DNA of 64,000 nucleotides from contig JASGHE010000006.1 in the NCBI GenBank assembly GCA_047602475.1, forward strand, positions 632,051 through 696,050, written 5' to 3'. Both the position numbers and the translations under genes were made by a program. This DNA is from Gemmatales bacterium (lineage in GTDB: Bacteria > Planctomycetota > Planctomycetia > Gemmatales > HRBIN36). The notes beneath the pieces were generated by a model. The model saw only the letters and a list, made by a program, of their open reading frames with translations. It was not told where the DNA came from and made no database searches. Shown piece after piece: positions 17,218 to 56,076 of the stretch (the stretch's first letter is position 1; each line of letters starts with the position of its first letter).

Positions 17218-17762
17218 GATAGGCACTCCAGATTTGCTTCCTTTTTGCGGTGCAAAGAATATGCCTGGAGTCCTATAGAAGGAGTTCACCGAAGACGGAA
17301 ATTGACAGGAATCCAGCCAGTTGGACCTTTTAATTAGGATGCTTATATGGTTGTCCGTGATAACCGCCAAATGAGGGCATTATTTGCCCAAGCGGGATTC
17401 TTTAGTCGATAGATGTTGCACGAAGAGACGGCCCGGCTGGGAAGTGGGACTGGTCAGCCCCAGCCGGGCGTTTGGATATCTCATCTCATCCAATATGAGC
17501 TTGATTCAAGCTGACCCATTTCGTCTTTATTGAGAACTAATAGTACGATCGAGACCTTTTTGACGCTGCCCTTCCTCATTTACTTTAATGACGATTTCCA
17601 AATTAACCATTCTCAGGCACAATGCCTTATCAATTACTTTTGACGTATCCATGTCAATAGATACTATTAGTGACTTACCTAAGTCAACATCTGAATAACA
17701 TGGCATAAAAACTGCCTACGAGGGTGGCCAGGCTACGATGTGTTCCTTTTGGAGGTTCTGTT

Positions 17763-18407
17763 ATGCGTTACTTCACCTTGGCCGTCATCGTGGGAACTGC
17801 TGTTCTGTCTATTCCCAGTTCAGCGAGCGCCTGTCACCGGCGCTCCTGTTGTGGAGGTTACCAGCAAGGATGGTCGGGATGCTGCGGCTACTCGGGTGGC
17901 TATGGCTGCTATGGAGGATACGGCTGTTACGGCGGGGGCGGGTGCTACGGTTCAGGTGGATATCGCGCCTGGAATGGTTCTTATTCTGGTGGCTATGCCT
18001 ACAACTACCCTTCAACCTCTTATTACAACGGCTACGCCATGCAAAGCGATCCGAACTATGGAACTGGCAGCCGCACCTCTGCTTATTATGACACTAATGG
18101 GAACGTACTCAATTCTTCTAATGGCAGGCAGGCTTTCGTCGAAGTGATCCTTCCCGATGCCAACTCAGAATTGTTTATTGAAGACCAACGAATGAATGGC
18201 GTAGGCACCATGCGATCTTTCATCTCCCCTGACTTGGAGTCTGGCAAAGACTTTACCTACACAATCAAAACGAAACGCAACGGAGTTGACGAAACAAGAA
18301 AAGTACAAGTACAAGCTGGAAGGAGGGTGACAGTTGATTTCACTAAACCTAAGTCGGACCTTGCTCCTTTGCCAAACATCAAGCAAACAAGCGATGAATC
18401 TAAGTGA
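17763..18407 (+). CDS. TIGR03000-domain secreted protein with Gly/Tyr/Cys-rich N-terminus
   Basis: Signal peptide; C-terminal RSFISPDLESGKDFTYTI...VQAGRRVTVDF. Promoter motif at 17701-17716. Confidence 0.85.
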   Translation: MRYFTLAVIVGTAVLSIPSSASACHRRSCCGGYQQGWSGCCGYSGGYGCYGGYGCYGGGGCYGSGGYRAWNGSYSGGYAYNYPSTSYYNGYAMQSDPNYGTGSRTSAYYDTNGNVLNSSNGRQAFVEVILPDANSELFIEDQRMNGVGTMRSFISPDLESGKDFTYTIKTKRNGVDETRKVQVQAGRRVTVDFTKPKSDLAPLPNIKQTSDESK

Positions 18408-18421
18408 TCGATGGAAAAACT

Positions 18422-18609
18422 AAAACAAGCCACCCAGGAGCCGGGTGGCTTGCTCGCATTCGCCCCGGAAACTGGAGCGACGCATCAGGTTTGACAGATC
18501 TTCTACTTTCTGTCAAATCCCTTCCGGTGATCAGTCACGGGCGATTCGCCCCATCAACTGAACCACTGGCTAATTGAATCGTAGCGCCGTTCTAAGCTGT
18601 CCGGCAAGT
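18422..18609 (-). ncRNA. Putative structured ncRNA, copy B (homolog of 32075-32275)
   Basis: The reverse complement aligns with 32075-32275 over about 190 nt with stem-preserving substitutions and ends in a terminator-like hairpin plus T tract. Confidence 0.6.
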
Positions 18610-18679
18610 ACTGCTTTAGATGATGGAATGAGTCGGCCAGTTGAGACTTGTGGTATCTGTTTTGCTAGACGACTGTGAC

Positions 18680-18859
18680 ATGCGAAAGATCACTGCAACC
18701 CTGTTGATTGTAATGACACTGGTTTGGGCGCTGGTGATTGGCCCCTTGGTCTGGATTTGCCGAACCAATCTCGATTTCATCTACTGGTGGGCGCCTATAC
18801 TCGTACTTTTGGTGCTTACCAGCTATTTGATGGATACGAAGCCCACTCGCTTACCCTGA
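18680..18859 (+). CDS. Small two-helix membrane protein
   Basis: MRKITATLLIVMTLVWALVIGPLVW...WWAPILVLLVLTSY; strongly hydrophobic; start uncertain. Confidence 0.4.
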   Translation: MRKITATLLIVMTLVWALVIGPLVWICRTNLDFIYWWAPILVLLVLTSYLMDTKPTRLP

Positions 18860-30988: not shown

Positions 30989-31263
30989 CTGTAACTCCAC
31001 TCAAAATTGCCTGGTGCAAGGAAGGTTATCGGGGAATGGTTTGGAGCGGCAGCCTAGTGCCGATGTTTGAAAAACTGAATAGCCCGCTCATGTTTCTCCG
31101 CTGCTGCGCGTGTAGCAAAGGTTCCAAGGTTTTTGCGTTTACCTGTCTTGCTGTCTGCCTTTCGCGAATAGATGCGAAATTGACGAGACTTAAGCTTACG
31201 AATCATCGGATTCTCCTCGTCGATCAGTTGTGATAAGCAAGCAACATTGCAAATGTTGCACCG

Positions 31264-31410
31264 TTAGCGGGCAGAAATTGTTAGCCCGTACTCCCTCATG
31301 AGGGATATGCCAACGGCAAGCAATGTGCCGCCGATAATTATCGCCCACATTACCCTTTCGATGAACCTGGCGGTGGGGTCGGGCTTGGTGAAATGAAGTT
31401 GCCGGTGCAT
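31264..31410 (-). CDS. 48-aa single-pass membrane peptide
   Basis: Not in ORF track. MHRQLHFTKPDPTARFIERVMWAIIIGGTLLAVGISLMREYGLTISAR*. Confidence 0.55.
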   Translation of the reverse strand: MHRQLHFTKPDPTARFIERVMWAIIIGGTLLAVGISLMREYGLTISAR

Positions 31411-31422
31411 GGTTGTTCCCTG

Positions 31423-31545
31423 CTAAGACAAGTGCGGCATGATCATGGCAATGATCAGCATTGCGTAGATGATGATCGAGAACCAGAATGAGAACTTCGC
31501 CAGGGCTATGCCCGCTTCTGATCGGCTGAGAGTGTGACCGTACAT
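31423..31545 (-). CDS. 40-aa single-pass membrane peptide
   Basis: Not in ORF track. GGGAGAG RBS, MYGHTLSRSEAGIALAKFSFWFSIIIYAMLIIAMIMPHLS*. Confidence 0.55.
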   Translation of the reverse strand: MYGHTLSRSEAGIALAKFSFWFSIIIYAMLIIAMIMPHLS

Positions 31546-31563
31546 GATGACTCTCTCTCCCTT

Positions 31564-31702
31564 TTAACTATGTGGCCCGTACTCGTGAAGCACCACCATG
31601 CCTTATGCGTTACAACGCACCGCCGACAGCCACGAGCCACACAAACCACATCGCCAGCTTTTCTATGAACCGGAATTCATCGAAAGGTTTCTGTTCTAAC
31701 AT
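31564..31702 (-). CDS. Membrane peptide paralogous to 31264-31410, interrupted near 31610
   Basis: MLEQKPFDEFRFIEKLAMWFVWLVAVGGAL*, then GMVVLHEYGPHS* in a shifted frame. Sigma54-type motif at 31734-31749. Confidence 0.5.
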
Positions 31703-31829
31703 GGTTTGGCCCATCTTCTAACAAAGAATGAATTGCATTCGTTGTGCCTAAAGCTTGCGAAAACAGGTGCATGCATCGAAAACCGTGTTCATGAAGGTAG
31801 GACAGGTGGGCAGGAATAGAATTTAGACA

Positions 31830-32275
31830 GGTCGGGTTAAACGCTCGACCACGGACCGAGACCCAACACGCTCGGTCAACAAAGGGGCCTGACAGTGACC
31901 ATCGCGACAATGGTGGGTACTGCCAGGCCTGATTGCTTTATGGGCTGCATGGGAAGTCGAATATGGAAGAACCCGCCCGAAAAGCCGTGAACCAAATGCC
32001 GGGTCTGGTTGCTCTGGAGTTCGGAAGGACATGGATGCCAGCTTTATCACGTCCGGTTCAGGCCAATCATTTTCACTTACCAGACAGCTTGGAGCGGCGC
32101 TAGGATTAAGTAAGGCCGGTGATTCACTCTTTATGGGTCGTCAACGACCAAGACTAAACATCGGCTCAGAGGGCTTGGCAGTTAGTCGTGGAATCTGTTA
32201 AGCCTGAAGGTTCTTTCGGTCTTCGTTTCCGCGATCGAAAGAGAGCAAGCCACCTAGCTCCTAGGTGGCTTGTTT
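31830..32275 (+). ncRNA. Putative large structured ncRNA, copy A
   Basis: TAGAAT -10 box at 31817-31822, a run of successive stems with G-U wobbles, 3' terminator hairpin at 32246-32272; second copy at 18422-18609. Confidence 0.6.
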
Positions 32276-32400
32276 CAATCCAGAAATATTACATTTGACT
32301 GTGCCATTAAGGCCGTTTGTGATCTCCACCCACCCACATAACCCACCCGCCTTGGCATCATATCTGCGTAGTTACTTCTTGAACTACAAGGAGGCTCATC

Positions 32401-32688
32401 ATGCAAACGCTAACCAGCCGGGTGCTGAATGAATATGAACTCAACCGAGCACATTGGGCTATTCTGTCTACAGCAGGATATTACCTCCCGGTCTCGCCTT
32501 CGCTATTAATTGCGCAAATCCAGTCACATCCAGACGAGGACTTCTCGCACGAGGAGATAGGCAAGGCTCTACACGACTGCATTAATGCCGGGCTTCTTGT
32601 TTATGCTCAAGATGGGGTTGTATTGTCAGATCGTGGCAATCATCTGAAAGACCAGATCAACAGCGAGCTGATGGAAACAGTCGAGTAA
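32401..32688 (+). CDS. Small winged-helix-like hypothetical protein
   Basis: AGGAGG RBS, sigma54-type motif at 32353-32368, ...AGLLVY...VVLSDRG pattern. Confidence 0.65.
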   Translation: MQTLTSRVLNEYELNRAHWAILSTAGYYLPVSPSLLIAQIQSHPDEDFSHEEIGKALHDCINAGLLVYAQDGVVLSDRGNHLKDQINSELMETVE

Positions 32689-32758
32689 TCTAAGCAAAAG
32701 GCTCTCGACAAGGTGCTGAAGCTTTGTCTGTGCGAGTTGGTAAACTGAGGCTCGAACC

Positions 32759-33022
32759 ATGAATCGGATCATCAAAAAATTATGCAACCGACAAGACCTT
32801 CTCAGAATCAACCCTTGCATCGGCAAAACGGTTAAGCTTGACGGATCAGCCGCTCGGATACTCGGTGGGCAGGAGGTCATTCCTTCGCCGGTGCCCTGGG
32901 AGTGCTCGTGTGTGGTATCGGTCGAGCTTCTTGAACGTCTTCCGGACGAGTGGGTGGAACCTAGTGAAGAGTGCGGGGAATTGGTCAAGCGAATCTTCGG
33001 CACCGTAATATTGAATCGCTAA
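32759..33022 (+). CDS. Hypothetical protein
   Basis: GAGG RBS, 87-aa ORF. Confidence 0.45.
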   Translation: MNRIIKKLCNRQDLLRINPCIGKTVKLDGSAARILGGQEVIPSPVPWECSCVVSVELLERLPDEWVEPSEECGELVKRIFGTVILNR

Positions 33023-33071
33023 ACCGCTGTTCAGGTTGCCGAGCCAGCCTCATGTTTCGTTGCCTACTGTC

Positions 33072-33275
33072 CTAAATGAGGTGGAAGTTAACGGGATTCT
33101 TGGCATCCCAAATCAAAGCATAAGGCCATGCCGGCCACATAACAAATGAGGCCAGCAGGTAGCCCAGAGATTTCTCGATTGGACGTGGGCTGAAACAGAG
33201 CATAGTAAACGTGATTGCGGCACTGATTATCCCGCAGATGATGTAGGTGTACAGGAAAATGGTGGCGATTTGCAT
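33072..33275 (-). CDS. Small membrane protein
   Basis: AGGAG RBS, two hydrophobic segments, sigma54-type motif at 33307-33322. Confidence 0.6.
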   Translation of the reverse strand: MQIATIFLYTYIICGIISAAITFTMLCFSPRPIEKSLGYLLASFVMWPAWPYALIWDAKNPVNFHLI

Positions 33276-33391
33276 GGCAGAAACTCCTAGAACTAGGGGA
33301 TGTAGTTGCAGGTGTCATGCCATGACATAGTGTTTAAGTGCGTCTGCGATCCCGTCCTCTCACCATCTCGGCTAATGGACCTGGAGGCGCT

Positions 33392-33667
33392 ATGGAACCT
33401 AAACGCTTTGAACTCGAATGTCAGGTTTGTGGCACAACGATGATGTCGTCTAACCCCAAAGAGCAATGCCAGGTATGTGGTGGGGAAATGATCGTTGCAC
33501 CGTTTTTTAGTGTTCAACAAACGATGACATTTGGCCCGAAAGACAATACGGCCCGACACACTTGGATCGCCTTGCTGGCCCTGTTGCTTATCGGGATGGT
33601 TGCCACTGGAGTAATTGTGCTTACTAAAGAACAAAAGACACCGCAAGGAACAAAGAAAGCAAAGTGA
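33392..33667 (+). CDS. Zinc-ribbon protein with C-terminal TM helix
   Basis: GGAGG RBS; CQVC...CQVCGG followed by WIALLALLLIGMVATGVIVL. Confidence 0.6.
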   Translation: MEPKRFELECQVCGTTMMSSNPKEQCQVCGGEMIVAPFFSVQQTMTFGPKDNTARHTWIALLALLLIGMVATGVIVLTKEQKTPQGTKKAK

Positions 33668-33891
33668 GTAACACTAATGTCCAACGAATCCTGCCCAGTT
33701 TGCGGTAATAAGCCAGGCGATCCCGAAGGCAAGCCTGTACCCTGTCGTCGTTGCGAGATGATGGAGTCCTGGGCCATTCCTCGCCGTTCAAGAACGGCAT
33801 AGAGAAAGATCTGAGGCAAGGGGGCGAGAATGGTGTAGTTGGGGAAACAACTTAGTTTGGTTGCGGTGGTCTACACAGTCTCGTCCAAACA

Positions 33892-34806
33892 CTATCCAGG
33901 AGCAAATGGCATCATGGGCTTCGGCATCTCGTTGAGGATGTCCTTGACTACTGTTTGATACTCATGGGAATAAGGAATAAACTTGCTGATCCGCCAGAAA
34001 TTAAGAATCTGCCTGGTGAACGGTCGAGTATGCGCAGTGCAAAGCACGTCACTGACCAATTTGAGGTCAGCTGCAGCCCATGCTTGAGGGTGATAGAGAA
34101 CTGCAGACGTAGGAAAAGAGTCTGACTCATCAATCACTTTCAACTTCTTTGCTCTGCCTGGTTTGCGCTCTTGATACACTTTCCAGGACTCTGAATCGAC
34201 AAGTATCCCAGACGCTTTCTTGTCCACTACCGTTTCAATACCCTCATCCGTGTCATTCGTGAGGAGTATGCGGCTAAAGTAGTTCTTTGGTTCTACTCCC
34301 TGTTCAAGTATCTCTTGTTGCAAATACAGTAACGGGAAATGTTGTAATCGCTTGGGCAAGACGATGCTCTGCCCTTTGAGGTGCGAAAAGGATTCCGCTT
34401 TGCTCTCAGTAGGCACTACGATGCATGCCTTAAGTCTAATATCAGAGGTAAACGCAGTCACTAAAGGTACGAGTTCTGGGAAGCTTGAACTAATCCATGC
34501 ATACTCAATGCCCGTCATGATCGCCAAGTGAATGTCATGTTTTTGTAACCGCCCTCCTAAGACCATTGGCCCACCGAATTGAAATGTAGGCTTGGGCTTG
34601 CCTGGAATTGCGAAGACATCTGCCATTGCTTGAACCACAATGTTTGCAACCTCTGTTTTCATTTGTCCATGCATTACAAAATCTGCTATGCCTATTTCAA
34701 ATAAGGGGGCCTTTCCTTGTGCTGATCCGAGCAAGTTAAGAAAGGGAGTAGCTGCCAGGAAGCTCATGAAGGTTCGTCGAGTCAACAAGCTCATCTCCTT
34801 CGTCAT
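33892..34806 (-). CDS. PhnD/SsuA-family periplasmic substrate-binding protein (Tat)
   Basis: TRRTFM Tat motif, LKGQSI, helix-strand pattern of type II SBPs. Confidence 0.7.
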   Translation of the reverse strand: MTKEMSLLTRRTFMSFLAATPFLNLLGSAQGKAPLFEIGIADFVMHGQMKTEVANIVVQAMADVFAIPGKPKPTFQFGGPMVLGGRLQKHDIHLAIMTGIEYAWISSSFPELVPLVTAFTSDIRLKACIVVPTESKAESFSHLKGQSIVLPKRLQHFPLLYLQQEILEQGVEPKNYFSRILLTNDTDEGIETVVDKKASGILVDSESWKVYQERKPGRAKKLKVIDESDSFPTSAVLYHPQAWAAADLKLVSDVLCTAHTRPFTRQILNFWRISKFIPYSHEYQTVVKDILNEMPKPMMPFAPG

Positions 34807-35286
34807 GCCAGAATACTCGTGTGGCTGAATTAGAAATCAGCTATTCTTATGCCAAAGAGAGTTCAGACTTAGCGCGTGTCAATAAACGAAGCAAGCCACC
34901 GGAACTATTGGGTGGCTTGCTCGTTTTCACCCCTAGTTAGGAGCCAGGAGCTACTGATTCATTTTGGGCGAAGACCAAGTGACAGACTTGGGTTATTCTC
35001 CCCCCGCAACTGCTTGGCGATGACGTACACGGACGTAATTGATGCGATGGTCACAGAGCGGTTAAGCACCATATTTGAGAAGCATCTTGCCTGTAATAGC
35101 AATGTGAACAATATCGAGTTGAAGACCCAGCTTTTACATCTGGTCGATGAAGTGGCGCGAATCGAGTTCATGCAAAGAATCGCATGAGAACCAGAATCCA
35201 TCGGGAAATCTTGAGATCAACCTTTACAGGTACAGCAGTTGCTAGGTAGTCAAAGGGTACGGTTGACTTTGAAGCAAGGATAAGTC

Positions 35287-35646
35287 GTGCGAAAACCTTT
35301 AGATGCTTATGTGGAATTACCTGGAGAAAGTCTGGCATCGCAAGCCATGAAGGCTTTGGCAGGCGAACTGATCAGGCTTCATAACTACTTATCTGAAAAC
35401 GCAGCAAAAACTTGTTCTCTCCATACACTTCAGTTGCTCAGTGATGCTGCGGATGCTGCATACCTCGATAGGAAGACTTCCGTTGCAGGACTGTTGTCAG
35501 AACTCACTCGACCAGGTTTTCAAATGGCTTATGATGCTGCGATCAAGCTGAACCTTAACCTTGTAATTGAAGCCATCAAGGTAGCGGGTGGAAGTGAACT
35601 GCATGACATAACGGTAGGAGTAGCCGGTGGTGAGTTTTCTGGGTAA
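35287..35646 (+). CDS. Hypothetical protein
   Basis: AAGGA RBS, sigma54-type motif at 35228-35243. Confidence 0.5.
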   Translation: MRKPLDAYVELPGESLASQAMKALAGELIRLHNYLSENAAKTCSLHTLQLLSDAADAAYLDRKTSVAGLLSELTRPGFQMAYDAAIKLNLNLVIEAIKVAGGSELHDITVGVAGGEFSG

Positions 35647-35698
35647 GTACATCGCTCATTCATAACTTCCCTACCTCTTTAAATCTGGAGAGCCAATC

Positions 35699-35932
35699 AT
35701 GCCTAAATGCTACACTTGCGGGAACGACTACGACAAGTCATTCATGATCATCAAAGAAGACAAGGAATACATCTTTGATTCCTTCGAATGTGCGATCCAT
35801 GCTCTCTCCCCGCCCTGCAAGCATTGTGGTTGCCGGGTGATTGGTCATGGTGTTGAGAAAGATAATTCCATCTACTGCTGTGCAAATTGCGCAACAATGG
35901 CTGGCGATGATGGTTTGAAAGATCGAGCATGA
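35699..35932 (+). CDS. Cys-rich metallothionein-like protein
   Basis: CYTCGNDYDKSF...FDSFECAIH...CKHCGCRVIGHGVE...YCCANC. Confidence 0.8.
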   Translation: MPKCYTCGNDYDKSFMIIKEDKEYIFDSFECAIHALSPPCKHCGCRVIGHGVEKDNSIYCCANCATMAGDDGLKDRA

Positions 35933-36329
35933 TCTACGAATCGTTATGGGGAAAGTTACCCTATGGTCTACATAGACGAAACCGACTGGCTGGACATCAT
36001 CACCAACAAGGCCACTGATCTCGTCGCCGCAGAGCACATTATCGCTCTGGCAAAACTTCGGACCCTGGTCGTCACGGGGGTCAATGGTTGGGAGTATCTG
36101 CCTGAATTGGATGATGATAGCGTGTGGCGAAAGGTACCCTACGTCCGGAATATCTAAGAGTTGTATCTCAGCTACGCACATATCGGGAATGGATTTGATT
36201 AGCGGCTTCCGAAAAGAAAAATTGATCAGTCTTGAAATTGGCAGCACCTCGAATGAGAGAGTTTGGCACACCATGTGAAGGCTAACGAAGAGTGGAACTG
36301 TTTTCTTACTCTTCTAGGAGTTGAATACC

Positions 36330-36860
36330 ATGGCACAAAGCAAACCCAAAATGATCACGAGCGTCTTTCGGGATCGATACGACGCTATCGAAACTTATGA
36401 TTGGCTGCGAGTTCTGGGGTACACACCCGATCAGATCAGTGTGTTGATGTCAGATCAGACCAGAAGCTACTACGCCAATGAAGTGAAAGAAGGAAAAATC
36501 GAACGTGGCTCGAAGCTGGCGGAAGGAGCCGCGACGGGTGGTGCCCTGGGTACAGCTATTGGAGCCGGCTTGGCAGCGTTTGCTGCCATCGGCACGAGTT
36601 TAGTTTTGCCTGGTCTGGGCTTAGTCATTGCCGGACCTATTGCGGCGGCTTTTGCTGGTGGCGGTGCCGGCGCTGTGGCAGGCGGGCTCATTGGCGGCCT
36701 GGTAGGGTATGGCATTCCTGAGTCGAACGCCAAAGCCTATGAAGAAGCTCTTCGTGAGGGTGGAGTTGCAGTGGGCGTGGTACCACGCAACAGTGAAGAA
36801 GCTTCTCTCATCAGGAAAGAATTTGAAAAACGCCGTGGTGACAACATCATCACAGCTTAA
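36330..36860 (+). CDS. General stress protein with glycine-zipper
   Basis: GAATGGALG...GPIAAA...GLIGGLVGYGIPE...YEE. Confidence 0.85.
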   Translation: MAQSKPKMITSVFRDRYDAIETYDWLRVLGYTPDQISVLMSDQTRSYYANEVKEGKIERGSKLAEGAATGGALGTAIGAGLAAFAAIGTSLVLPGLGLVIAGPIAAAFAGGGAGAVAGGLIGGLVGYGIPESNAKAYEEALREGGVAVGVVPRNSEEASLIRKEFEKRRGDNIITA

Positions 36861-36934
36861 GTACTGTGCATCTCCAGGTTTGACACTGGCGTCAAACCTT
36901 TTTTTCCTTTTCCAACTACTTCGGAGTCTTCACA

Positions 36935-37702
36935 ATGAAGCTTTCTCTTATTCACGTTGTCCAATCATACGTTCTGGTCTGTTGTCTCCTGAACGGCACT
37001 TGGCTTTTTGCTCAGGAAGACAAGTCCAAGCATCCTGACTACCGCCCTGGAGAGGGGGATAGCATTTCTTCCGCCGGCATTATCACTCCTCAAGAAAATG
37101 ATCGTCGTATTGTCAAATGGTTAATGATTGATGTTCGAGGCGTGCTCGAATGCAGTAAGGATGCCCAAGCTCAAACGAAGAACGAGAACGTCAAGCAGTT
37201 TGCTCAGACGATGGTGACTGAGCATCATTCATGCCTCGATCAGATGGAGAATTACCGCAAAGAACGAGGTAAAACGACGAATGATCCCGGGCAAACCGGC
37301 AATCCGCCTGTAGCTCGAGCAGAGAATGTTCAAGTAGATCCCAAGAAGTCGGGAATTCTTGTGAAGGATGAGGCAGGTCGCCAACGAGATGGCAAGATGA
37401 TGTATCACGCCACCGACTTCGTTCAAGTTAAGGAGGACATCTGTAATCAGATGAAAGCCAAGATGTCCAAGGAAATGAAAGCGTTGCCTGCTTCGGAGTT
37501 CGATCGTGCTTACATGATGCACATGGTTGCCAGTCATGAAATGCTGCTGGCCTCCTGCAAATCGGTTCGTAAGACCGCATCCAAGGATTTGCAAGCGATG
37601 TTGGATCAGAACATTGATAAGCTCACTGCACATTTGAAGCAGGCTCAGACGCTTTGCGATCAGGTTTGTGGCAAAACGACTACAGGAAAACTCAGCAAGT
37701 AA
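36935..37702 (+). CDS. DUF4142 secreted protein
   Basis: VKQFAQTMVTEH, FDRAYMMHMVASH, LTAHLKQA. Confidence 0.8.
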   Translation: MKLSLIHVVQSYVLVCCLLNGTWLFAQEDKSKHPDYRPGEGDSISSAGIITPQENDRRIVKWLMIDVRGVLECSKDAQAQTKNENVKQFAQTMVTEHHSCLDQMENYRKERGKTTNDPGQTGNPPVARAENVQVDPKKSGILVKDEAGRQRDGKMMYHATDFVQVKEDICNQMKAKMSKEMKALPASEFDRAYMMHMVASHEMLLASCKSVRKTASKDLQAMLDQNIDKLTAHLKQAQTLCDQVCGKTTTGKLSK

Positions 37703-37850
37703 GTGAGTTAATCCTTGAAGAGGGCGTTGGGAATAAAACCCAAGCCCTCTTTCTTTACTTGGCCTGCACATTACCTCACTATGGCATTGAGCTTGCATTA
37801 AGTAGTGATGTATTGATGTGACCAAATCGAATTCAAATAAGGAGAATCTC

Positions 37851-38468
37851 ATGCGATTCTTAGTGCTGATAGCTTTGTCGATCGGACTGCTTGCCCCAGA
37901 TACTGCCTTTGCCCAACGAGGCGGTCGCGGAGGACATTACTCTGGCGGCGGCTGGTACGGCGGAGGCGGCTACGGGAATAACTGGTATGGAAATGGTTGG
38001 AATAGTGGCCGTTGGTATGGAAACTGGAACCGGGGCTATTACCCCTACTCAACTTTTGGATGGGGTGGCTATATCACGCCGGGGTACACTTATTACAATC
38101 CTGACTACTCAGGCTACATCTACAGCGATAGTTCTCCTCGCATTTCGAGCTACTACGATCCTCTCGTCAACAGTGCTATAGACAACTCTGTAGTATCTCC
38201 TAACAGAGCACGGCTTGACATACGTCTGACAAATCCTGATGCCATCGTGCTCATAGAAGGACAAAAGATGAGCCTGACCGGCGCTCAGCGAGTGTTCGTC
38301 TCACCCGACCTCGAACCGGGAAAGAGTTATACCTACACGATTACTGTGAAAGGAAACAATGAAGACCGAGGCGAAACTCGACAGGTGAATGTGCATGCAG
38401 GGAGCAATGAACGAGTGGATTTCACTCAGCCTCCCGTTCAGAAATTGCCTGACCCGCGATCCAATTAG
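37851..38468 (+). CDS. TIGR03000-domain secreted protein
   Basis: G/Y/W-rich N-terminus; RVFVSPDLEPGKSYTYTI. Promoter motif at 37782-37797. Confidence 0.85.
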   Translation: MRFLVLIALSIGLLAPDTAFAQRGGRGGHYSGGGWYGGGGYGNNWYGNGWNSGRWYGNWNRGYYPYSTFGWGGYITPGYTYYNPDYSGYIYSDSSPRISSYYDPLVNSAIDNSVVSPNRARLDIRLTNPDAIVLIEGQKMSLTGAQRVFVSPDLEPGKSYTYTITVKGNNEDRGETRQVNVHAGSNERVDFTQPPVQKLPDPRSN

Positions 38469-38623
38469 TGAGCTGGACTGAACGCCAATCGAAGCAACTG
38501 TTTGAGGCCGGGGAGTTTCCCCGGTCTCTAGTATTTCTTGTTGAATCAGTAATTGACAGGATCATGGCACATGACATGCATCTTGAACAGCCCATGCAGT
38601 TCCTTTTCTCTCTGGAGAAGCCC

Positions 38624-38884
38624 ATGCGATATTTATGTGTTGCGCTTTTCGCTGCCTGTTTTTTCACACCAGGCACCGCCAACGCTTGTCACCGACGACA
38701 TGGCTGCTGTAGCCAGTCGAGTTGTTCCCAGGTCGTGTCGTACAATTGTGGAGGATGTGGAGGTCAAGTTTATTATCAGACTACTTCCATGAACCGTGAT
38801 GGCAGACCCATGGGAAATGTTCAGTTAGCGCCCATGCCATCGACGGGGAGCACACCGAAGATGCCCGTTCCGCAAAACAAATAG
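38624..38884 (+). CDS. Small secreted Cys-rich protein
   Basis: GGAG RBS, signal peptide, ANA-CHRRHGCC. Promoter motif at 38565-38580. Confidence 0.7.
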   Translation: MRYLCVALFAACFFTPGTANACHRRHGCCSQSSCSQVVSYNCGGCGGQVYYQTTSMNRDGRPMGNVQLAPMPSTGSTPKMPVPQNK

Positions 38885-39127
38885 TCCTCCACTTGCTGCT
38901 GAAATACTCTTAGTCCTGATACTTGTTGTTGTGTCAGGACTTCAAGCTTTAGTGCATCTTGCCTTGAAGCTGAGCCTTTTGATTCCTGACACTGGGCAAG
39001 CAGTTCGCGCACCGGTTGGGCTTCATTACTTAAAGGGCTGAGATGCCTGTAAAGGACTAATCGGGCCTCGGCTGGCACAACGAATGCATGGCATTCTTCA
39101 GGACAAATGTTCTTATGGAGTCGTGTC

Positions 39128-39364
39128 ATGCCCTCGATCAAAGACCATATGGATGTCATCGCGTCATGCGGCAAGAAAATCGGCCGTGTGGATCATGATG
39201 AAGGGGATGCTATCAAACTGACAAAGTCAGACAGCCCTGATGGCCAACACCACTACATCCCAAAGAATTGGGTGGATCATGTAGATAGCCACGTTCATCT
39301 CTCCAGAAACTCAGAAGAGGCGATGAGGGAGTGGAAGCCGGATGCTCGATCGTGTGGGTGTTAG
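39128..39364 (+). CDS. DUF2171 protein
   Basis: IKDHMDVI...GRVDH...IKLTKSD...DGQHHYIP..WV. Confidence 0.88.
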   Translation: MPSIKDHMDVIASCGKKIGRVDHDEGDAIKLTKSDSPDGQHHYIPKNWVDHVDSHVHLSRNSEEAMREWKPDARSCGC

Positions 39365-39478
39365 TCACCATTTATCAACGCCACTCAATCTTTGGGTGGC
39401 GTTGGCTATTACCTCAGACACGATCCATTGTGGCATGATCAATGCTTCCCTTTTGTTCTTTCAAGAGTGAGCGATCCC

Positions 39479-40510
39479 ATGCATCGTCGTTTTTTTCTTC
39501 AATGTAGTTCCGTCGCACTCGTTCCAGGGAACTCGGTCATGGCTATCAATGGCAAACAAACAGATGAATTGCCTCCTCTCTTTGACCAGGTCAATGAAAC
39601 CAAGAAGGGAGACATGCGTTATCGCCGACTGGGAAAGACGGGTGAAGTTGTTTCCTGTGTCGGCATAGGTGGGCATCACATCGGTAAGATCAAGGAGGAA
39701 GCTGAGAGTATTCGTGTGATGCGGGAAGCCATTGATGCCGGTATCAGTTTCATGGACAACTGCTGGGATTATCACGACGGGTTAAGCGAACTAAGAATGG
39801 GAAAAGCACTCCAGGATGGATACAGGAAGAAAGTCTTTCTGATGACCAAGATCGATGGCCGAACGAAAAATGCAGCGACCCGGCAACTTGACGATTCCCT
39901 GCTGCGGCTTCGCACCGAGATGATCGATCTGGTGCAGCATCATGAAATGATTCGGATGGAGGATAGCGATCGCATCTTCCAAAAAGAGGGAGCGCAGGAG
40001 GCCTTGGAAGCAGCCCGCAAGGCCGGCAAGATCCGGTATATCGGATTCACCGGCCACAAAGATCCGGCTGTGCATCTTCGGACGCTGGAGAACGCCGGCA
40101 GGCATAATGTCAGATTTGACACTGTTCAAATGCCGCTCAATTTGATGGACGTGCATTTCCGCAGCTTTACCCGTCAAGTGTTACCACATCTGGTAAAGGA
40201 CAACATCGGTGTGCTCAGCATGAAGCCCCTGGCGAGCGGCGCAATACTCGAATCGAAGACTGTTACCGCTGTCGAATGCCTACAGTTTGCGCTTTCGTTG
40301 CCGACTTCGGTAGTCATCACCGGCATCGATAGTCGGGAACGGCTGAAGCAGGCCCTGTCGGTCGTGAAAGACTTTGCTCCTTCTACACCGGAAGAAATGC
40401 GGAAGCTGATGGATAAGACCGTCAAGTCGGCTGCTTCGGGAGCTTACGAAGGATTCAAAACAGGCGTTGATTTCGACAGCACTGCCAAACATCCGGAATG
40501 GTTGGGATGA
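39479..40510 (+). CDS. Aldo/keto reductase with Tat signal
   Basis: HRRFFL; DNCWDY, MTK, GKIRYIGFTGH. Confidence 0.9.
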   Translation: MHRRFFLQCSSVALVPGNSVMAINGKQTDELPPLFDQVNETKKGDMRYRRLGKTGEVVSCVGIGGHHIGKIKEEAESIRVMREAIDAGISFMDNCWDYHDGLSELRMGKALQDGYRKKVFLMTKIDGRTKNAATRQLDDSLLRLRTEMIDLVQHHEMIRMEDSDRIFQKEGAQEALEAARKAGKIRYIGFTGHKDPAVHLRTLENAGRHNVRFDTVQMPLNLMDVHFRSFTRQVLPHLVKDNIGVLSMKPLASGAILESKTVTAVECLQFALSLPTSVVITGIDSRERLKQALSVVKDFAPSTPEEMRKLMDKTVKSAASGAYEGFKTGVDFDSTAKHPEWLG

Positions 40511-40564
40511 GATTACTCAGCCCTCACCATGTCATTTTCCACTTCCAACCAGGAGATCATTTCG

Positions 40565-41026
40565 ATGTTCACAGTCAGCGCAAATCGGGTTAGCGCGAAC
40601 ACGCCTGAGTTCATCAATGAACGGATCAAGGCTGCCACCGAGGCCAAAATAAGCTGCACGGCAAAGGGAGGCCCGGCGGCCATTGATCGTCGTCTGGTTG
40701 AACTGGATCTAGAATGGGATATTGAACGCTGCTTGGAAACCATGGCTCCGTCCTTAAGCCTGTTTGGCTTAGGTATGGGCATCATCGGTTCGAAAAAATG
40801 GTTGATCGTTCCGCTCGCTGTTCAGGCATTCTTTTTGGAACATGCTTTACAAGGTTGGTGCCCTCCTCTTCCCATGTTGCGCTACCTGGGTGTCCGCACT
40901 GCCGACGAAATTAACGAGGAGAGAAACGCACTCAAGGCATTGCGCGGAGACTACAAGAATGTTCCTCGTAAGGGACGTGATGCTGAGTCCATTCAGAAAG
41001 CGGTCGCAGCTGCTTCTATTTCCTGA
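40565..41026 (+). CDS. DUF2892-like membrane protein
   Basis: EWDIER...HALQGWCPP...GVRT..EI..ER.ALKALRGD. Confidence 0.8.
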   Translation: MFTVSANRVSANTPEFINERIKAATEAKISCTAKGGPAAIDRRLVELDLEWDIERCLETMAPSLSLFGLGMGIIGSKKWLIVPLAVQAFFLEHALQGWCPPLPMLRYLGVRTADEINEERNALKALRGDYKNVPRKGRDAESIQKAVAAASIS

Positions 41027-41057
41027 AAACTGATTTCAACAGACACATCCCAGGAGC

Positions 41058-42451
41058 ATGAACATGATTAACCCAGTTAGAACTCTTGCGTTATTCATTC
41101 TGGCTTCGATCGTTCTGATGGTTACCAGTTCAGCATCGTCGGACGATAAGCCATCGAGCTACATCAATGTGGTAGAAGAGCCATTGCCTAAAGTGATTGA
41201 TCGCATGACAAAAGAGAAGCCGGCCGTCATGGAACGCCAAATGGCGTTGCTCAAGGAGCGGTACATTCTTGAGAATCAGGCTGTTCCTCAAGCCACGATG
41301 TCGAAGGGAAAAGCGGTACAAGGTGGAGTAAGAATAAAACTCGTTGATGGCTCGACCTGGGATTCACTTGCCTCGGCTTCTCCCGTGGAGATCAAGCAAA
41401 AGAAACTCTGGCCGAAGGGCTTTTATCCGCTGCCGCATCCTAACCATGCTGAAGGGGGAATGCTCTTCCCCAAGTTTCACATTGATGAGATCAAAAAGCA
41501 GGAAGCTCGGGACCTGACACGATTCGATCTCGATTTTGATCTTCCTGATCACTTTCTTCCAGAGTTTCCTCCACCGATTTTCCTGACCACTCGCCCCGAC
41601 CTGGGAGATGTGAGCCAGGGAAAGCTCGTCACTATCAATAACTTCTATGAGCTGTTCAATGGAGTGCTGAATCCCAAGCAGATCGAAGGAGTGAGGCTGC
41701 TGGTGACTCCCTTCCCTCAGCAACAGTTCAATCAGACAGCAGATCGGCGTTCTCTTTTGCCCAGCAGGGGTGTGACTTGTTTTGATTGTCATGTGAATGG
41801 CCATACCAATGGGGCTACGCATCTGGTAGGCGACATTCGCCCGCAGCCGTTTCGCCATCGGCTCGATGTTCCTACATTACGGGGCGTTAATATCCAACGG
41901 CTTTTTGGTTCACAACGATGCTGAAAACCGTGGAAGACTTCACCGAGTTCGAGCAACGTGCCGCCTATTTTGATGGCGACCCGGTGATAGCCACGAAGAA
42001 AGGAATCAATGTGCTGGAGCGAGCCAGCCAGGTTCATTTCATGGCTGAGTTTCAGGAGCTGCTGGATTTCCCTCCTGCTCCGAAGCTAACCATCCTGGGA
42101 AAGCTGGATCCGACGAAGGCCTCGGAAGCTGAATTGCGTGGAGAGAAGCTATTTCATGGTAAAGCACAATGCTCCGTCTGCCATCCAGCGCCGTATTACA
42201 CAGATAACCTGATGCATAATCTCAAGACTGAGCGATTCTTTGAGCCCCAGGTAATTAATGGGAGGCAAGCTGCGTCCGATGGTCCCATCAAGACTTTTCC
42301 TCTACGAGGCATCAAGGATTCACCGCCTTACCTGCATGACGGCAGGCTCTTAACCCTTGCTGATACCGTGGAATTTTTCAACCTCGTCCTGGGGATGAAG
42401 CTTACCGAGCAGGAAAAAGCTGACTTAGTCGCATTCTTGTTATGCTTGTGA
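41058..42451 (+). CDS. Diheme cytochrome c (peroxidase/MauG-like), frameshifted near 41918
   Basis: CFDCH and CSVCH heme motifs; PTLRG; PPYLHDGRLLTL. The two ORFs abut at GSQR/LKTVEDF. Confidence 0.85.
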
Positions 42452-42727
42452 TGAAAAGGTAGTTCTACATATGGCCCTTCGGACTATTCTGAAGGGCTTT
42501 TCCATTCCGCGCATTAGATGGAGCCGATTCCCTTCCATTGAGCACCAGGCAACCTTGATTTGTGCAAGCTCTTGCTCAAAGGGGCATGCCGGCAGATGAT
42601 GGTTTGTCTCGTCATGAATAAATGTAGGGCAATCTTTTCCAGATGAGCTGGAACAACATTTGCCAATCTGGACAGACAGGTTTCTAAATGTTTGTTTTCT
42701 TCTGCCGGTTTCCGGAATGAGGAAATC

Positions 42728-43102
42728 ATGTCTGCGTCAATGGCTTGTGATCTATCTCCCTCCCAAGAGTTAGCTCTCACAAAAAGGCCCAAGCTGCCTT
42801 ATACACGGTTGATCTTATTTCTTACGTTCAGCATCACGGATTTCCTACTGACTAAATGGCTGCTGCAAAGAAGCCATGGCGACTTCTATGAAAGCAATCC
42901 TCTTGCCGAGGGCATCCTTCAAAATCTGGGATGGCAGGGCTTAGCGTACTTTAAGTTCTCCTCGGCCCTATGCGTCCTGGCCATTGCCATTTATCTCGGG
43001 GTGTTACGCCCGCTAATAGCACAACGGCTCATCAATTTTGCGTGTCTGGTTCTCGGCTTCGTGGTGACCTACAGCCTGGTGTTAGTGTTCGGCTTTGCGT
43101 AA
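42728..43102 (+). CDS. DUF5658-like membrane protein
   Basis: DFLLT...YESNPLA...FKF pattern. Confidence 0.7.
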   Translation: MSASMACDLSPSQELALTKRPKLPYTRLILFLTFSITDFLLTKWLLQRSHGDFYESNPLAEGILQNLGWQGLAYFKFSSALCVLAIAIYLGVLRPLIAQRLINFACLVLGFVVTYSLVLVFGFA

Positions 43103-43177
43103 GTACTGCGCGATGCGTAACCCTCGTAACTAATGGATGTTAACCAGCAATGATTGCCCAACGCAGGACTCTAATGG

Positions 43178-44200
43178 ATGGAAGAGCCAACAAAAGCAGC
43201 GCGAGCTTCGGGCTTACGTTATTTTTCAGACGCGGAGCCTGGTATTCAGCGAGTATCGTCCGGAAAAAGATTCCGATACCTTCGGAGCAATGGACGTGTA
43301 GTACGCAATCAAGAAGTCTTGAAGCGTATTCAATCGCTGGCGATTCCGCCGGCTTGGACCGATGTGTGGATTTGTGCTTCTCCTAAGGGCCATTTGCAAG
43401 CTACTGGGCGGGACGCTCGTCGTCGAAAACAGTTCAGATATCACCCACGTTGGTGTGCATTTCGCGACGAGTCCAAGTATGAGCGAGTCCCACAGTTTGC
43501 TAAGTGCCTTGCCCAAATGCGGCAAAACATCAAGAAACACCTCCGACTGAAGGGTCTTCCCAAGGAAAAGGTCTTGGCCACGGTCGTTCAGTTGCTTGAA
43601 TCAACCCAGATTCGGGTCGGTAATGAAGAATATGCAGAACAGAATCACTCCTATGGGTTAACTACGTTAAGAGTCAGGCATGTGAAAATCCACGGGGCAC
43701 GCATGAGGTTTCAGTTCAAAGGGAAAAGCGGAGTGAAACACGCCATTCAGTTGAATGATCGCCAACTTGCCCGAATTGTAAAGCAATGTCAGGAGTTGCC
43801 AGGCCAGGAGTTGTTTCAATACCTGGACGAAGAAGGCAGGCGACATGTTATCGGATCGGATGACGTCAATGACTATATCCGTCAGATTTCTGGAGGGGAC
43901 TTCACGGCAAAAGACTATCGCACCTGGGCGGGCACCGTTTACGCAGTCAAGGAGCTTCAGCATTATCAAAAATTTGAATCTGAGCGAGAAGCCAAGGAGA
44001 ATCTCAACCAGGCTATCCAGGCTGTCGCCAAGAGGCTGGGCAATACCAGAGCGGTCTGCAGGAAGTGTTACATCCACACTGCTGTGATCGAGGCCTATGT
44101 GGATGGGCATTTGTTGGATGTGTTTCCATCGAGTACACCAAGAACGAACATCATGGAGAAGAAACTGGTTCGGTTTCTTCAGCGTTATCGTCGGCTATAG
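43178..44200 (+). CDS. Bacterial DNA topoisomerase IB
   Basis: IPPAWTDVW, IRVGN, FKGKSG, AKDYRTW, LGNT..VCRKCYIH (catalytic Tyr). Confidence 0.93.
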   Translation: MEEPTKAARASGLRYFSDAEPGIQRVSSGKRFRYLRSNGRVVRNQEVLKRIQSLAIPPAWTDVWICASPKGHLQATGRDARRRKQFRYHPRWCAFRDESKYERVPQFAKCLAQMRQNIKKHLRLKGLPKEKVLATVVQLLESTQIRVGNEEYAEQNHSYGLTTLRVRHVKIHGARMRFQFKGKSGVKHAIQLNDRQLARIVKQCQELPGQELFQYLDEEGRRHVIGSDDVNDYIRQISGGDFTAKDYRTWAGTVYAVKELQHYQKFESEREAKENLNQAIQAVAKRLGNTRAVCRKCYIHTAVIEAYVDGHLLDVFPSSTPRTNIMEKKLVRFLQRYRRL

Positions 44201-44310
44201 GAGTGCCGCCCAAGCTCCCTCCACCGGCGTGTCTCAATTGGTTCTCTTGGCACTCTCTTTGCAACTCGTTACTAACTGTTACCTGACACCTACTACTGAG
44301 GAATCCGATC

Positions 44311-45015
44311 ATGAAATCGCTATTTGTCTTTACTCTGCTGGGCCTCGACCTTGCAACACCGTTTGCTATTTATGCTCAAGCTCAACAAAATCCCGTAACC
44401 CAAGGGCAGGCAGGGCAAGCCCAGGCACGGATTGATGCCGCGAACCAGGCGATCTTCGGTCGCATCAACCAGAATGCCTTTTACATGGATCCTGCCATCC
44501 AAGCGCAATTGAACGTCAACGCCCAGCAGGCTCAATTACTGAACCGACAGCAAGCACAACTCTGGGATGTCTATATCAAAACGCAATCCCAGTTTAATCC
44601 TGCAGCCAATCTGACTGAAGCACAACGGCTTGCCCTGCTGCAAGCGGGAAATCAATACTACACCAACCTGAATGCGGGTACAGCTAATATTCTTACCCCA
44701 GAACAGAGAACCCGTTTCTGGCAACTGTCGCTTCAGTACCGGGGTTACAACGCCCTGTCCGATCCATACGTGTCACAGCAACTGGTTTTAACGAATGACC
44801 AGCTTGCCAAGATTCAACAATACCAGACTGCTTACGATCAACAACTGATGAAGATTTATCTTCTGCGACAATCTAATCCCAAGGAGTTTGCCTCACAACT
44901 GGGACAACTTCGCAGCAAGATGACCAGTCAAATCAATGGCCTGCTGACCCAAGAACAACAACAAAAGTGGCAAGGTTTCATCGGAAGTACCCATAACTTC
45001 AATTACCTCTACTAG
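44311..45015 (+). CDS. Secreted Gln-rich Spy/CpxP-like helical protein
   Basis: Signal peptide; repeated LTPEQR/LTNDQL/LTQEQQ. Promoter TGGCACTCTCTTTGCA at 44248-44263. Confidence 0.7.
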   Translation: MKSLFVFTLLGLDLATPFAIYAQAQQNPVTQGQAGQAQARIDAANQAIFGRINQNAFYMDPAIQAQLNVNAQQAQLLNRQQAQLWDVYIKTQSQFNPAANLTEAQRLALLQAGNQYYTNLNAGTANILTPEQRTRFWQLSLQYRGYNALSDPYVSQQLVLTNDQLAKIQQYQTAYDQQLMKIYLLRQSNPKEFASQLGQLRSKMTSQINGLLTQEQQQKWQGFIGSTHNFNYLY

Positions 45016-45091
45016 AGGACAATCCATCATGAGTGAAGCCATCTCCATGATGGCTTCTTGCACTGAGTAACTTGTATTTCGAGAAGATGCC

Positions 45092-46664
45092 ATGAGTCTT
45101 GTCGAGTATCAACGTAAACGGAAGTTTGATAAGACCGCTGAGCCTGGCCGGAAAGGTAACTCGTAAGAGCGGGTTTTCTTATGTGGTTCAGAAACATGAT
45201 GCCAGTCATCTTCACTATGACTTCCGATTGGAAATGGATGGTGTCCTAAAGAGCTGGGCTGTTCCTAAGGGGCCGAGCCTTGATCCTGCGATCAAACGAT
45301 TAGCTGTCCAAGTGGAAGATCACCCCGTCGATTATGGTTCCTTTGAAGGAACTATACCACAAGGACAATACGGCGGCGGCACGGTGATGTTATGGGATCG
45401 GGGCACCTGGGAACCATTGGGCGATGCTGAGGAAGGTTTTCGAACTGGAAAATTGAAGTTTAATCTGCATGGAAAGAAGCTTCAGGGCCATTGGATGCTT
45501 TTGCGAACTCATGGTACGAAAGGCAAAAAAGAGGATAACCGCTCGTGGCTCCTCATGAAAGAGCGTGATAGCCAGGCGAAATCCGTGGATGAAGGTGACG
45601 TCCTGGAAGAACTACCCTTGAGCATAAAAACCGGTCGGGACTTGAACGAGATCGCTACCGGAACGAAAGCCAAGAAAACTAGCAAACCACTCCGCCCCAA
45701 GAGAACCGGAGGTCTCGCACCTAAAAAAAAGCATCTCGCTGCGATGGTTAAGGACTACGATGCAGCACAAGAAGAGTATTCAGGCGTCCGTCTCACCAGT
45801 CCGGATAAAGTCCTCTATGCTGAACAGGGAATCACCAAACTGGATCTGGCCGAATATTATCGATCCATGGCGCCTCGGATTCTACCTCACATCAAAGACC
45901 GTCCGTTAGTCCTAGTACGCTGCCCCGAAGGAAGAAGCAAGGAGTGCTTCTTTCAAAAACACCCAGGCATAGGCACGCCGAAGAATCTTCGCCAATTTCC
46001 CATTACCGAAAAGAACAAAAGGGAGAACTATGTACTGGTAGACGACGCCGAAGGGCTAATCTCGCTGGCTCAAATAGGTGCATTGGAGATTCACGCCTGG
46101 GGATCACGAATCGATAAGCTCGAGCAACCTGATCGATTGATCTTTGATCTAGACCCCGATATTACCATTGATTGGAGTGCCGTCGTATCCAGTGCCCGTG
46201 TCATCCGAGACCTTCTTCTCAAACTGGGGCTGGAAAGTTTCGTGAAAACGACCGGTGGCAAAGGCCTTCATTTGGTTGTACCCATTCAACGTGATCTGGA
46301 ATGGGATGAAGCGAAGTCCTTTTGTAAGAAACTGGCTGAGTTTATTGTCTCGTTAGATGCTGATCATTTTACATCCAACATGTCCAAAGCTGCTCGTCAT
46401 AGAAAGATATTCGTCGACTATTTGCGTAATGGGCGAGGAGCCACGGCTATTATCCCTTATTCCCCTCGATCACGGGCTGGAGCCCCGGTTGCTTGCCCAA
46501 TCAACTGGCAGGATCTCAGTCCTCAGGTGACTTCGGAACAATACACGATTACGAATCTACGACTACGTATGTCAAAACTGAAACACGATCCCTGGGCAAA
46601 GTTGTGGACAGTACGGCAATCACTCAAGGCAGCCTCGAAGAAACTCAATGGGATCATGAAGTAA
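45092..46664 (+). CDS. ligD: LigD 3'-phosphoesterase + primase-polymerase (no ligase domain); indel near 45146
   Basis: ATG at 45092 gives MSLVEYQRKRKFDKTAEP; QKHDASHLHYDFRLE; polymerase DLDP, KTTGGKGLH, DYLRN. Confidence 0.9.
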
Positions 46665-46692
46665 AGAGATTTGTGTAATAACTGATCAGGCA

Positions 46693-46708
46693 TGGCACGG
46701 AGCTTGCG
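46693..46708 (+). promoter_or_regulatory. sigma54-type promoter of ku
   Basis: TGGCACGGAGCTTGCG, 60 bp upstream of ku. Confidence 0.75.
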
Positions 46709-46767
46709 TACTACTACATGTTCGGTCTCCTCTAACCGACTTCTAACCAACAAATCCGGGTAATCCA

Positions 46768-49372: not shown

Positions 49373-49400
49373 TTATAGTCGATACTCCTATAGTCTACAT
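49366..49400. promoter_or_regulatory. C-box double operator, copy 1
   Basis: ATGTCACTTATAGTCGATACTCCTATAGTCTACAT; 34/35 identical to 50716-50750. Confidence 0.75.
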
Positions 49401-49757
49401 CGATTTACTGTCAATGCAATGGCTCATCATGATACTGCTGGCAATGAACACGTAAGCTTACTACCTTACCTGGGAAGATCTGGAGGTTAGCCGCGTAATT
49501 ACTTTGCCTATTTAACAACCGTGAAAGCGCCATAGGTAACGGAACTGCTGAACATCAACCGAGCGATCCATAGTAAAATTGGTATTACTGGAAACTGTTC
49601 CAGCAGGTGAATCGAATAGGTTCGTGGCTAAAAAAAGCCGATCTCTGTTGAGGATCGGCTAATGCACAATGCTTGGAGCATTTCGACGACTAGTTTCCCT
49701 GCACGGACAGATTCTGCGCGACAGGTAATTGCAAGCTGCTTCATGAATATCTCAAGT

Positions 49758-50750: not shown

Positions 50751-50768
50751 TGCAGTAACGTCGATGCA

Positions 50769-56056: not shown

Positions 56057-56076
56057 GGTTTAGACTCTTCAAATAG

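Follow-up and report, generated by a model that had tools for sequence, protein, structure and literature searches.

A 459-nt interval (positions 31817 to 32275) in a 64 000-nt stretch of the genome of a Gemmatales bacterium, hereafter the window (C6:632051–696050 of a 6.28 Mb genome in 8 contigs), had been proposed from its sequence to encode one multi-stem RNA of ~450 nt, running from a TAGAAT box to a terminator and representing an undescribed family of large non-coding RNAs. The question raised by this locus is whether the interval is a single RNA or a set of adjacent elements of different origin, and what the conserved part of it may encode.

Composition of the interval 31817 to 32275

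The box and the local stems of the original prediction were all located in the sequence: the TAGAAT box (31817–31822), the stems GGTCGGG/CTCGACC (31830–31850), GACCGAG/CTCGGTC (31854–31877) and GGCCTG..ACCAT/ATGGT..CAGGCC (31886–31929), the stem GCCGGTG/CATCGGC with GGTCG/CGACC inside it, and the stems GGCTTGGCAG/CTGTTAAGCC and TCTTTCGGTC/GATCGAAAGA. There is no long ORF in between, and the minimum-energy fold of the 459 nt links the two halves by the predicted long-range GTCTGGT/ACCAGAC helix, all of which would favour a single RNA. However, one strand of this helix is unique sequence and the other lies in the conserved 5′ motif of a 205-nt unit that recurs in the genome. The helix is absent from the centroid structure of the 459 nt, and it cannot form in the three other copies of the unit (B, C and D), from which its upstream partner is missing.

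The whole interval was found to fold better than shuffled sequences on both the plus strand (z −3.46) and the minus strand (z −4.40), and energy alone therefore does not select a strand. When parts of the interval were treated separately, the three hairpins in 31823–31945 gave a z of −4.18, and 32112–32278 gave a z of −5.78, with 0 of 200 shuffles as good and a minimum-energy structure identical to the centroid structure. For 31942–32073, the z was +0.91 and 161 of 200 shuffles folded equally well.

A BLAST search of the genome with the interval revealed two independent repeat families, one of hairpins and one corresponding to the 205-nt unit. Elsewhere in the genome the two are found apart, 4.5 kb from each other on contig C7 and otherwise on separate contigs, with unrelated positions on C3 and C2. 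As homology starts sharply at 32074, the 5′ 125 nt belong to the other repeat family and the linker is both unconserved and unstructured, the interval is composite. It consists of a hairpin module, a spacer and the conserved 205-nt unit (Table 1), and a single ~450-nt multi-stem RNA is not supported. The best explanation is that three unrelated things are present, with 32074–32278 as the sole conserved functional unit.

The large non-coding RNAs OLE, GOLLD, ROOL and HEARO are, like this locus, intergenic and multi-stem and without an ORF. However, a large RNA of this kind would exceed 300 nt and be conserved in sequence and structure over its whole length, whereas the copies found here share only 32074–32278, a conserved unit of 165–205 nt, the remainder being repeat and spacer, and no Rfam match was obtained. 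The original prediction was thus right in recognising an undescribed structured non-coding element but not in its length of ~450 nt, and its term 'family' needs to be qualified, as one MAG copy and one metagenome locus were all that was found outside this genome. It is exceedingly improbable that one multi-domain RNA extends from the TAGAAT box to the terminator. Adjacent hairpin-rich elements of unlike origin can mimic one large RNA, which is a trap in the reading of raw sequence.

Table 1. Positions of the elements in and around the interval and of the copies of the 205-nt unit (positions without a contig prefix refer to the window)
Feature	Position	Strand	Remarks
TAGAAT box and two small hairpins (31830–31850, 31854–31877)	31817–31877	+	Separate repeat module, outside the conserved RNA unit
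62-nt GC-rich hairpin repeat	31880–31941		Terminator-like in both directions; three further copies in the genome
Unconserved spacer	31942–32073		No paralogue or match anywhere in the genome
Copy A	32074–32278	+	205-nt unit
Conserved 38-nt 5′ motif, predicted promoter	32074–32111	+	Homology among copies starts here
Predicted −35 element of copy A, TTACCA	32077–32082	+	Followed by 18-nt spacer
Predicted −10 element of copy A, TAGGAT	32101–32106	+	Predicted start near 32112
P2, long hairpin with internal loops	32114–32166	+	Same fold in each copy alone
P3, 11-bp hairpin, 12–13-nt loop with common AGU	32171–32205	+	98.5% of cells paired
P4, 10-bp hairpin, pyrimidine-rich loop	32212–32242	+	Folds in every copy
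Terminator-like hairpin, 15 bp, GC-rich	32243–32275	+	Weak U-tract in copy A
Copy B	18420–18610	−	Promoter-like motif, P2, P3, P4 and terminator; 70% identity to A
Copy C	C3:1054078–1054279		86% identity to A
Copy D	C7:66632–66834		82% identity to A

The module containing the TAGAAT box has a paralogue on contig C2 (L004), where the box reads TAAAAT, the position of hairpin 1 is taken by a stem of another sequence (GTAAGGC/GCCTTAC) and hairpin 2 is missing. A small hydrophobic ORF on the minus strand (31610–31702) is a 30-codon remnant of one that has 45 codons on C2 (L004 4782–4919), the shortening to 30 aa being caused by a 1-nt difference. The hydrophobic ORF, the TAGAAT/TAAAAT box and hairpin 1 together form a second conserved module, and a second copy of 31561–31748 adjoins the C2 copy of the 62-nt hairpin.

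The other copies of the 62-nt hairpin were found by genome BLAST at C3:509090 (97%), C7:71386 (88%) and C2:1799654 (84%). All three adjoin gene ends, the C7 copy lying between two convergent ORFs, and all are abutted by a common sequence; the sequence that flanks the hairpin on one side in these copies is missing at the window locus. In the C2 copy, the inner stem has changed from ACCAT/ATGGT to CCGG/CCGG. The 62-nt hairpin may be read as a repeated bidirectional terminator. REP/BIME-like elements are repeated extragenic hairpins used as terminators, and 31880–31941 resembles them as a short GC-rich hairpin with a compensated stem found beyond gene ends at four loci. It differs from them in having four copies only and not hundreds, and its sequence is unrelated to that of described REPs as far as Rfam shows.

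Further repeats were seen elsewhere in the window. Short dispersed repeats that have many copies across the genome are clustered at 58983–62478; they include a pair of 47-nt inverted arms (60530–60576 and 60683–60729) and a 60–90-nt element that is repeated about ten times at C6:587–612 kb, and the GC content reaches 62% at 61–62 kb of the window. In 49361–56424, a 78-nt direct repeat (49361 and 50711) is followed by a region that has paralogues on C2 and C3 (64–78%), and a 3.7-kb stretch matches the end of contig C4 at 90% identity.

Copies of the 205-nt unit within and outside the genome

A homologue of the 3′ half of the interval had been noticed 13.5 kb away and is real (copy B, 70% identity over 201 nt). 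BLAST searches identified four full copies of the unit in the genome, at 70–86% identity; one rearranged variant (E) is also present. Model R1, for which the four copies themselves were the training set, scored them at 159–222 bits, with 158.9 bits for copy B. Both ends of the homology are sharp, running from a 5′ edge at CACTTGCC... to just beyond the terminator hairpin.

The surroundings of the copies were compared. Copies A and C have downstream genes in common, an orphan 95-aa gene and then a paralogous block that extends to about 45175 in the window, while C and D have in common a divergent receiver-only response regulator gene upstream, truncated in D. An opposite-strand ORF is located downstream of copy D. 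Copy B shares its flanks with none of the others, and converges on a gene for a TIGR03000 protein (ORF 17724–18407). As the flanks differ among the four copies, the unit itself is what is retained, and it is a discrete intergenic element, confined to one strand and conserved in secondary structure.

Variant E (C2:1038965–1039148; L009 1501–1684) is located directly after the stop codon of a 108-aa paralogue of the 95-aa gene, and comprises a partial 5′ motif, a stem resembling P2, a P3 with good compensation and a terminator of its own. Model R1 gave it 25 bits, and model R2, which was built with E included, gave it 72 bits.

Several features of the neighbouring genes were also observed. The block downstream of copy A (32074–45175) is paralogous to C3:1045900–1054279 (81–89% identity, with indels), and starts exactly at the RNA unit. 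It includes genes for a DUF4142 protein and topoisomerase IB, genes for LigD and Ku are found just beyond (45099–47628), and this gene set has a stress- and repair-related look. The 95-aa ORF (32401–32688) has three paralogues in the genome (100%, 96% and 40% identity). Its product had no match in Pfam or NCBIfam and no homologue but itself in a set of 5.8 billion proteins, and gives the impression of a small winged-helix protein. A sigma-54-type promoter-like element (TGGCAT-N5-CTGC, 32353–32368), with GG and GC 12 nt apart, was seen by eye ~35 nt upstream of this ORF; it is kept in the C3 paralogue, and appears as AGGCAC-N5-CTGC in the third paralogue, on C2. A functional link between the RNA and the 95-aa protein was considered and rejected, as the two adjoin at three of five genome loci and the protein gene is missing at the B, D, MAG and metagenome loci. 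At copy B, a plus-strand ORF (18641–18859) of 72 aa, or 59 aa when counted from its ATG, encodes two hydrophobic stretches, is divergent from the unit and overlaps the end of a HAD hydrolase gene. Two proteins encoded in the window scored above the cut-off for the TIGR03000 'plancto_dom_1' domain.

Outside the genome, an exact 21-mer from P2 led to one copy in a MAG labelled Pirellulales (L019/G301) and to one locus on two metagenome contigs (L016 and L017) that are 99% identical over 3.8 kb. Two of the four metagenome contigs with the 21-mer (L015 and L018) were discarded as chance matches inside a GC-rich coding region. The unit in the MAG, a single copy (155 bits), adjoins the same truncated response regulator gene as copy D but is without P3, indicating that P3 is dispensable there or that the copy is dead. 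In the metagenome homologue (68.6 bits), P2-P3 has 82–83% nucleotide identity over 83–93 nt and the 3′ hairpins are different. Matching neighbour proteins at this locus are 30–68% identical and the intergenic flanks do not align. The core is thus conserved beyond its surroundings.

Searches with R1 returned no match in 60 relatives and, with lax filters, no full-length copy in four congeners, where just a 32-nt terminator match (E 0.6) was seen; in 150 genomes of the order, R1 gave just a 31-nt terminator match. R2 gave one partial match (model positions 131–198, E 0.004) in 150 genomes of the phylum, and BLAST with the 105-nt core gave two matches of 22–26 nt (E 0.004–0.008) in 400 genomes of the phylum. 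With up to two mismatches, the 21-mer had 4 matches in 266 other genomes of the order versus 6 for a reversed-pattern control, none of them full-length to R2 (best 13 bits), and a pattern for the 5′ motif had no match in the collections of genome contigs and of metagenome contigs. These searches used overlapping genome sets, with 16–150 candidates scored per genome, and were of limited sensitivity. The lack of a full-length copy in the four congeners would be surprising if the unit were a housekeeping regulator, and is in keeping with a young or mobile element.

No match to a known Rfam family was found at the gathering score when the 64-kb window was examined using Rfam 15, consistent with the original prediction, which had seen no hallmark of RNase P, SRP or a group II intron. 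The same holds for tmRNA, as ARAGORN identified no tRNA or tmRNA genes. A lax Rfam scan of 31000–33000 gave just ZEB2_AS1_3 (14.1 bits; gathering score 55), outside the unit, and that of four other copies gave just the CPEB3 ribozyme (18.1 bits; gathering score 35; E 0.97), both at the level of chance.

Fold, strand and coding potential of the unit

The four copies, each folded alone, gave the same P2, P3, P4 and terminator hairpin. The 21-mer that contains the apex of P2 (GGGUCG-UCAA-CGACC) does not vary among copies A, C and D, the copy in the MAG and the metagenome homologue, and a compensatory change of U-A to G-C is found in P2 of copy B. In P3, 4 of 11 pairs are changed on both sides among the six sequences having this hairpin, and P4 of copy B is formed by almost wholly different sequence. 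The terminator stem is 14–15 bp long in all four copies, with the hairpin of A being an inverted match to that of B. However, a consensus scan called an RNA-strand terminator in only one of the four (copy B, 18455–18423, minus strand), and U-tracts are short or poor in A and D. The terminator claimed at the end of the interval is therefore present as a GC-rich hairpin, but none was called on the plus strand in copy A, because just three U follow the stem.

When the four copies were aligned with the model, 95% of cells were paired and 8 pairs were changed on both sides; shuffles gave 2.7±1.2 such pairs, with 0 of 500 reaching 8, and slid controls gave 0–3. For the P2-P3 core in seven sequences (the four copies, the MAG copy, the metagenome homologue and variant E), 93.1% of cells are paired and 10 of 29 pairs are changed on both sides, compared with 3.1±1.3 when shuffled (0 of 500 as high) and 0–3 when slid; both counts come from 4–7 sequences, mostly paralogues from one genome, in alignments fitted to the tested structure.

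The plus strand had been proposed from G-U wobbles, and is favoured by the 22 G·U versus 5 A·C cells counted from P2 to the terminator in the four copies, a ratio biased by the prediction of the structure on that strand. The same strand folds better than its complement in three of the four copies. The interval includes ORFs of 56 aa on the plus strand and 75–77 aa on the minus strand. The open frame extends over 41 residues in A, 12 in B, 51 in C and 31 in D, and substitutions among A, C and D are spread 10/9/9 over the codon positions. With no third-position bias and a frame length that varies among copies, a small protein gene was rejected, in agreement with the earlier view that no credible ORF is present. 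Tandem repeats were looked for and none was found. A CsrB-like sponge was rejected, as only A and C have GGA in the loop of P3, as was a type I toxin-antitoxin system, as the hydrophobic ORFs are divergent from A (31610–31702) and B (18641–18859) and a response regulator gene is found at C and D.

The compensatory changes and the 22:5 bias would be unexpected for a dispersed repeat that acts only as DNA, such as a mobile-element remnant or end or a recombination site, in which the hairpins would be incidental and have no RNA function. A repeat of this type would account for the uneven copy number (four here, one in the MAG and none in the four congeners), and for the unit being the exact start of the ~13-kb block common with contig C3. 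The MAG and this genome also have patches of 96% identity in common, one of 583 nt at the D locus and another of 2 kb at C3:107920–109948, but the flanks of A and B are unmatched in the MAG at the DNA level. Such patches around the unit suggest DNA exchange, and hint that mosaic or exchanged DNA may be shared by the MAG and this genome. However, apart from the terminator there is no inverted repeat, and neither terminal inverted repeats nor a target-site duplication was seen by eye at the four copies. No transposase or integrase Pfam family was present among the neighbours scanned, and the unit has no match in plasmid, phage or viral collections. The original prediction had named a mobile-element end as one finding that would count against it; the features of such an end were looked for at the copies, and none was found. 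A purely DNA-level repeat is improbable.

The unit could also be a cis-acting leader, riboswitch-like or an attenuator, that controls a downstream gene via its terminator. It resembles such leaders as a structured element ending in a terminator hairpin, its P2-P3 core is highly conserved, which would be expected of an aptamer, and at three loci (A, C and the metagenome locus) a gene on the same strand starts about 60–125 nt after the element. However, ORFs on the opposite strand follow B and D, such that two of the four full copies are not upstream of a gene on the same strand, and variant E sits after a gene rather than before one. In addition, the downstream genes are unlike and unrelated, encoding the orphan 95-aa protein (A and C) and a 96-aa secreted-looking protein (metagenome locus), and in A and C a sigma-54-like promoter of their own, recognised by eye, is located between the terminator and the next gene. 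It is therefore very improbable that the unit is a leader.

The 5′ motif and the proposed small RNA

The extent of any transcript depends on how the first 38 nt of the unit are read. A scan called a sigma-70-like promoter, TTGCCA-18-TAGGAT, in C and D with 9 of 12 matches, which is a weak match as 0.4–0.7 such sites are expected per 600-nt region. The corresponding sequences in A (TTACCA) and B (TTGCCG and TACGAT) have 8 of 12 matches and, being one match short, were not called. The invariant columns in six sequences, the metagenome homologue included, include TTGC of the −35 element and A2, A5 and T6 of the −10 element, and the remainder of the 38-nt motif is not kept in the metagenome homologue. 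The edge of homology is 3 nt upstream of the first hexamer, and in the genome the motif is found only at the four copies, with a next best match of 25/38. A sigma-54 reading of the motif (TGGCAC-N5-TAGGA in C and D) was rejected, as the −12 GC is missing, B is without GG and the metagenome homologue contains no element of this type. From these features we infer that the first 38 nt are a sigma-70-like promoter, perhaps with a regulator site in the conserved spacer, and a transcript of ~165 nt is probable on this basis. Conservation of the 18-nt spacer exceeds what a promoter alone would require, and would also be in keeping with a 5′ seed or a site for a regulator.

Alternatively, within the same small RNA family, the whole 205-nt unit may be transcribed, from promoters in the non-homologous DNA upstream, with the 38 nt forming a conserved 5′ seed or a helix (P1) of the RNA. 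The 38 nt are the best conserved part of the unit, with 31/38 identical between B and C as compared with ~70% overall, and in many enterobacterial small RNAs conservation is likewise highest in a 5′-terminal seed. RNAalifold predicts a P1 hairpin here with 94% of cells paired, and a portion of the motif (CTTGCCAGACAG) is found again in variant E, within a 3′ UTR. However, none of the 13 pairs of P1 is changed on both sides, and copy B breaks three of them yet compensates the other helices. The 38-nt region folds differently in each copy, and no common −10/−35 elements are visible upstream of the boundary, where C and D have only about 60–75 nt before a divergent start codon. The distant homologue keeps only the promoter-critical positions. 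Transcription of the full 205 nt is thus unlikely, though it deserves some weight.

Our preferred reading, held with moderate confidence, is that the four paralogous copies of the unit are self-contained small-RNA genes, which would encode sibling trans-acting regulatory small RNAs in the ~165-nt form. With the 205-nt form included, a sibling small-RNA gene of either length is the likely reading. The first 38 nt would be the sigma-70-like promoter (−35 TTACCA/TTGCCA, 18 nt, −10 TAGGAT/TACGAT), and the predicted transcript (roughly 32112–32275) would fold into P2, P3 and P4 and end in the GC-rich terminator hairpin. The copies would reside in variable islands with many genes for signalling and stress functions, and the RNAs may act via their conserved P2-P3 core, either by pairing of exposed loop nucleotides with mRNAs or by protein binding. 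Seeds of 7–9 nt are expected to have many chance occurrences in a 6.3-Mb genome. Transcription of the unit, its start site and promoter, and a trans-acting mode are all predicted here from sequence.

Sibling trans-acting small RNAs are exemplified by Qrr1-5, OmrA/B and PrrF1/2. The unit resembles these in being a dispersed paralogous gene of 100–200 nt with its own promoter-like element, several compensated stem-loops and a terminator hairpin, and with homology that begins at this element. It differs from them in having no similarity in sequence or structure to any Rfam family and a very narrow distribution, and its promoter-like motif is sigma-70-like and not sigma-54. It is therefore plausible that the unit defines a new, narrowly distributed family of sibling small RNAs, and not a large non-coding RNA.

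A further, distinctly unlikely proposal is that the unit is a horizontally exchangeable small-RNA cassette, made up of promoter, RNA and terminator, that moves among planctomycete signalling and stress islands, and that its core is a specific protein- or ligand-binding module and not a simple antisense seed. If true, this would represent a new class of RNA regulator in a phylum with almost no described small RNAs.

A table in one review gives 8 annotated small RNA families for the PVC group, as against 345 for the Proteobacteria (PMC9029176). A literature search found nothing on planctomycete small RNAs, which is no proof that none is in print. The interest of the unit stems mainly from this scant knowledge of RNA regulators in the phylum, and the claim made here is a modest one: a family of four copies whose fold is clear and whose ends are defined, and which has a candidate promoter, would provide an entry into RNA regulation in the Planctomycetota.
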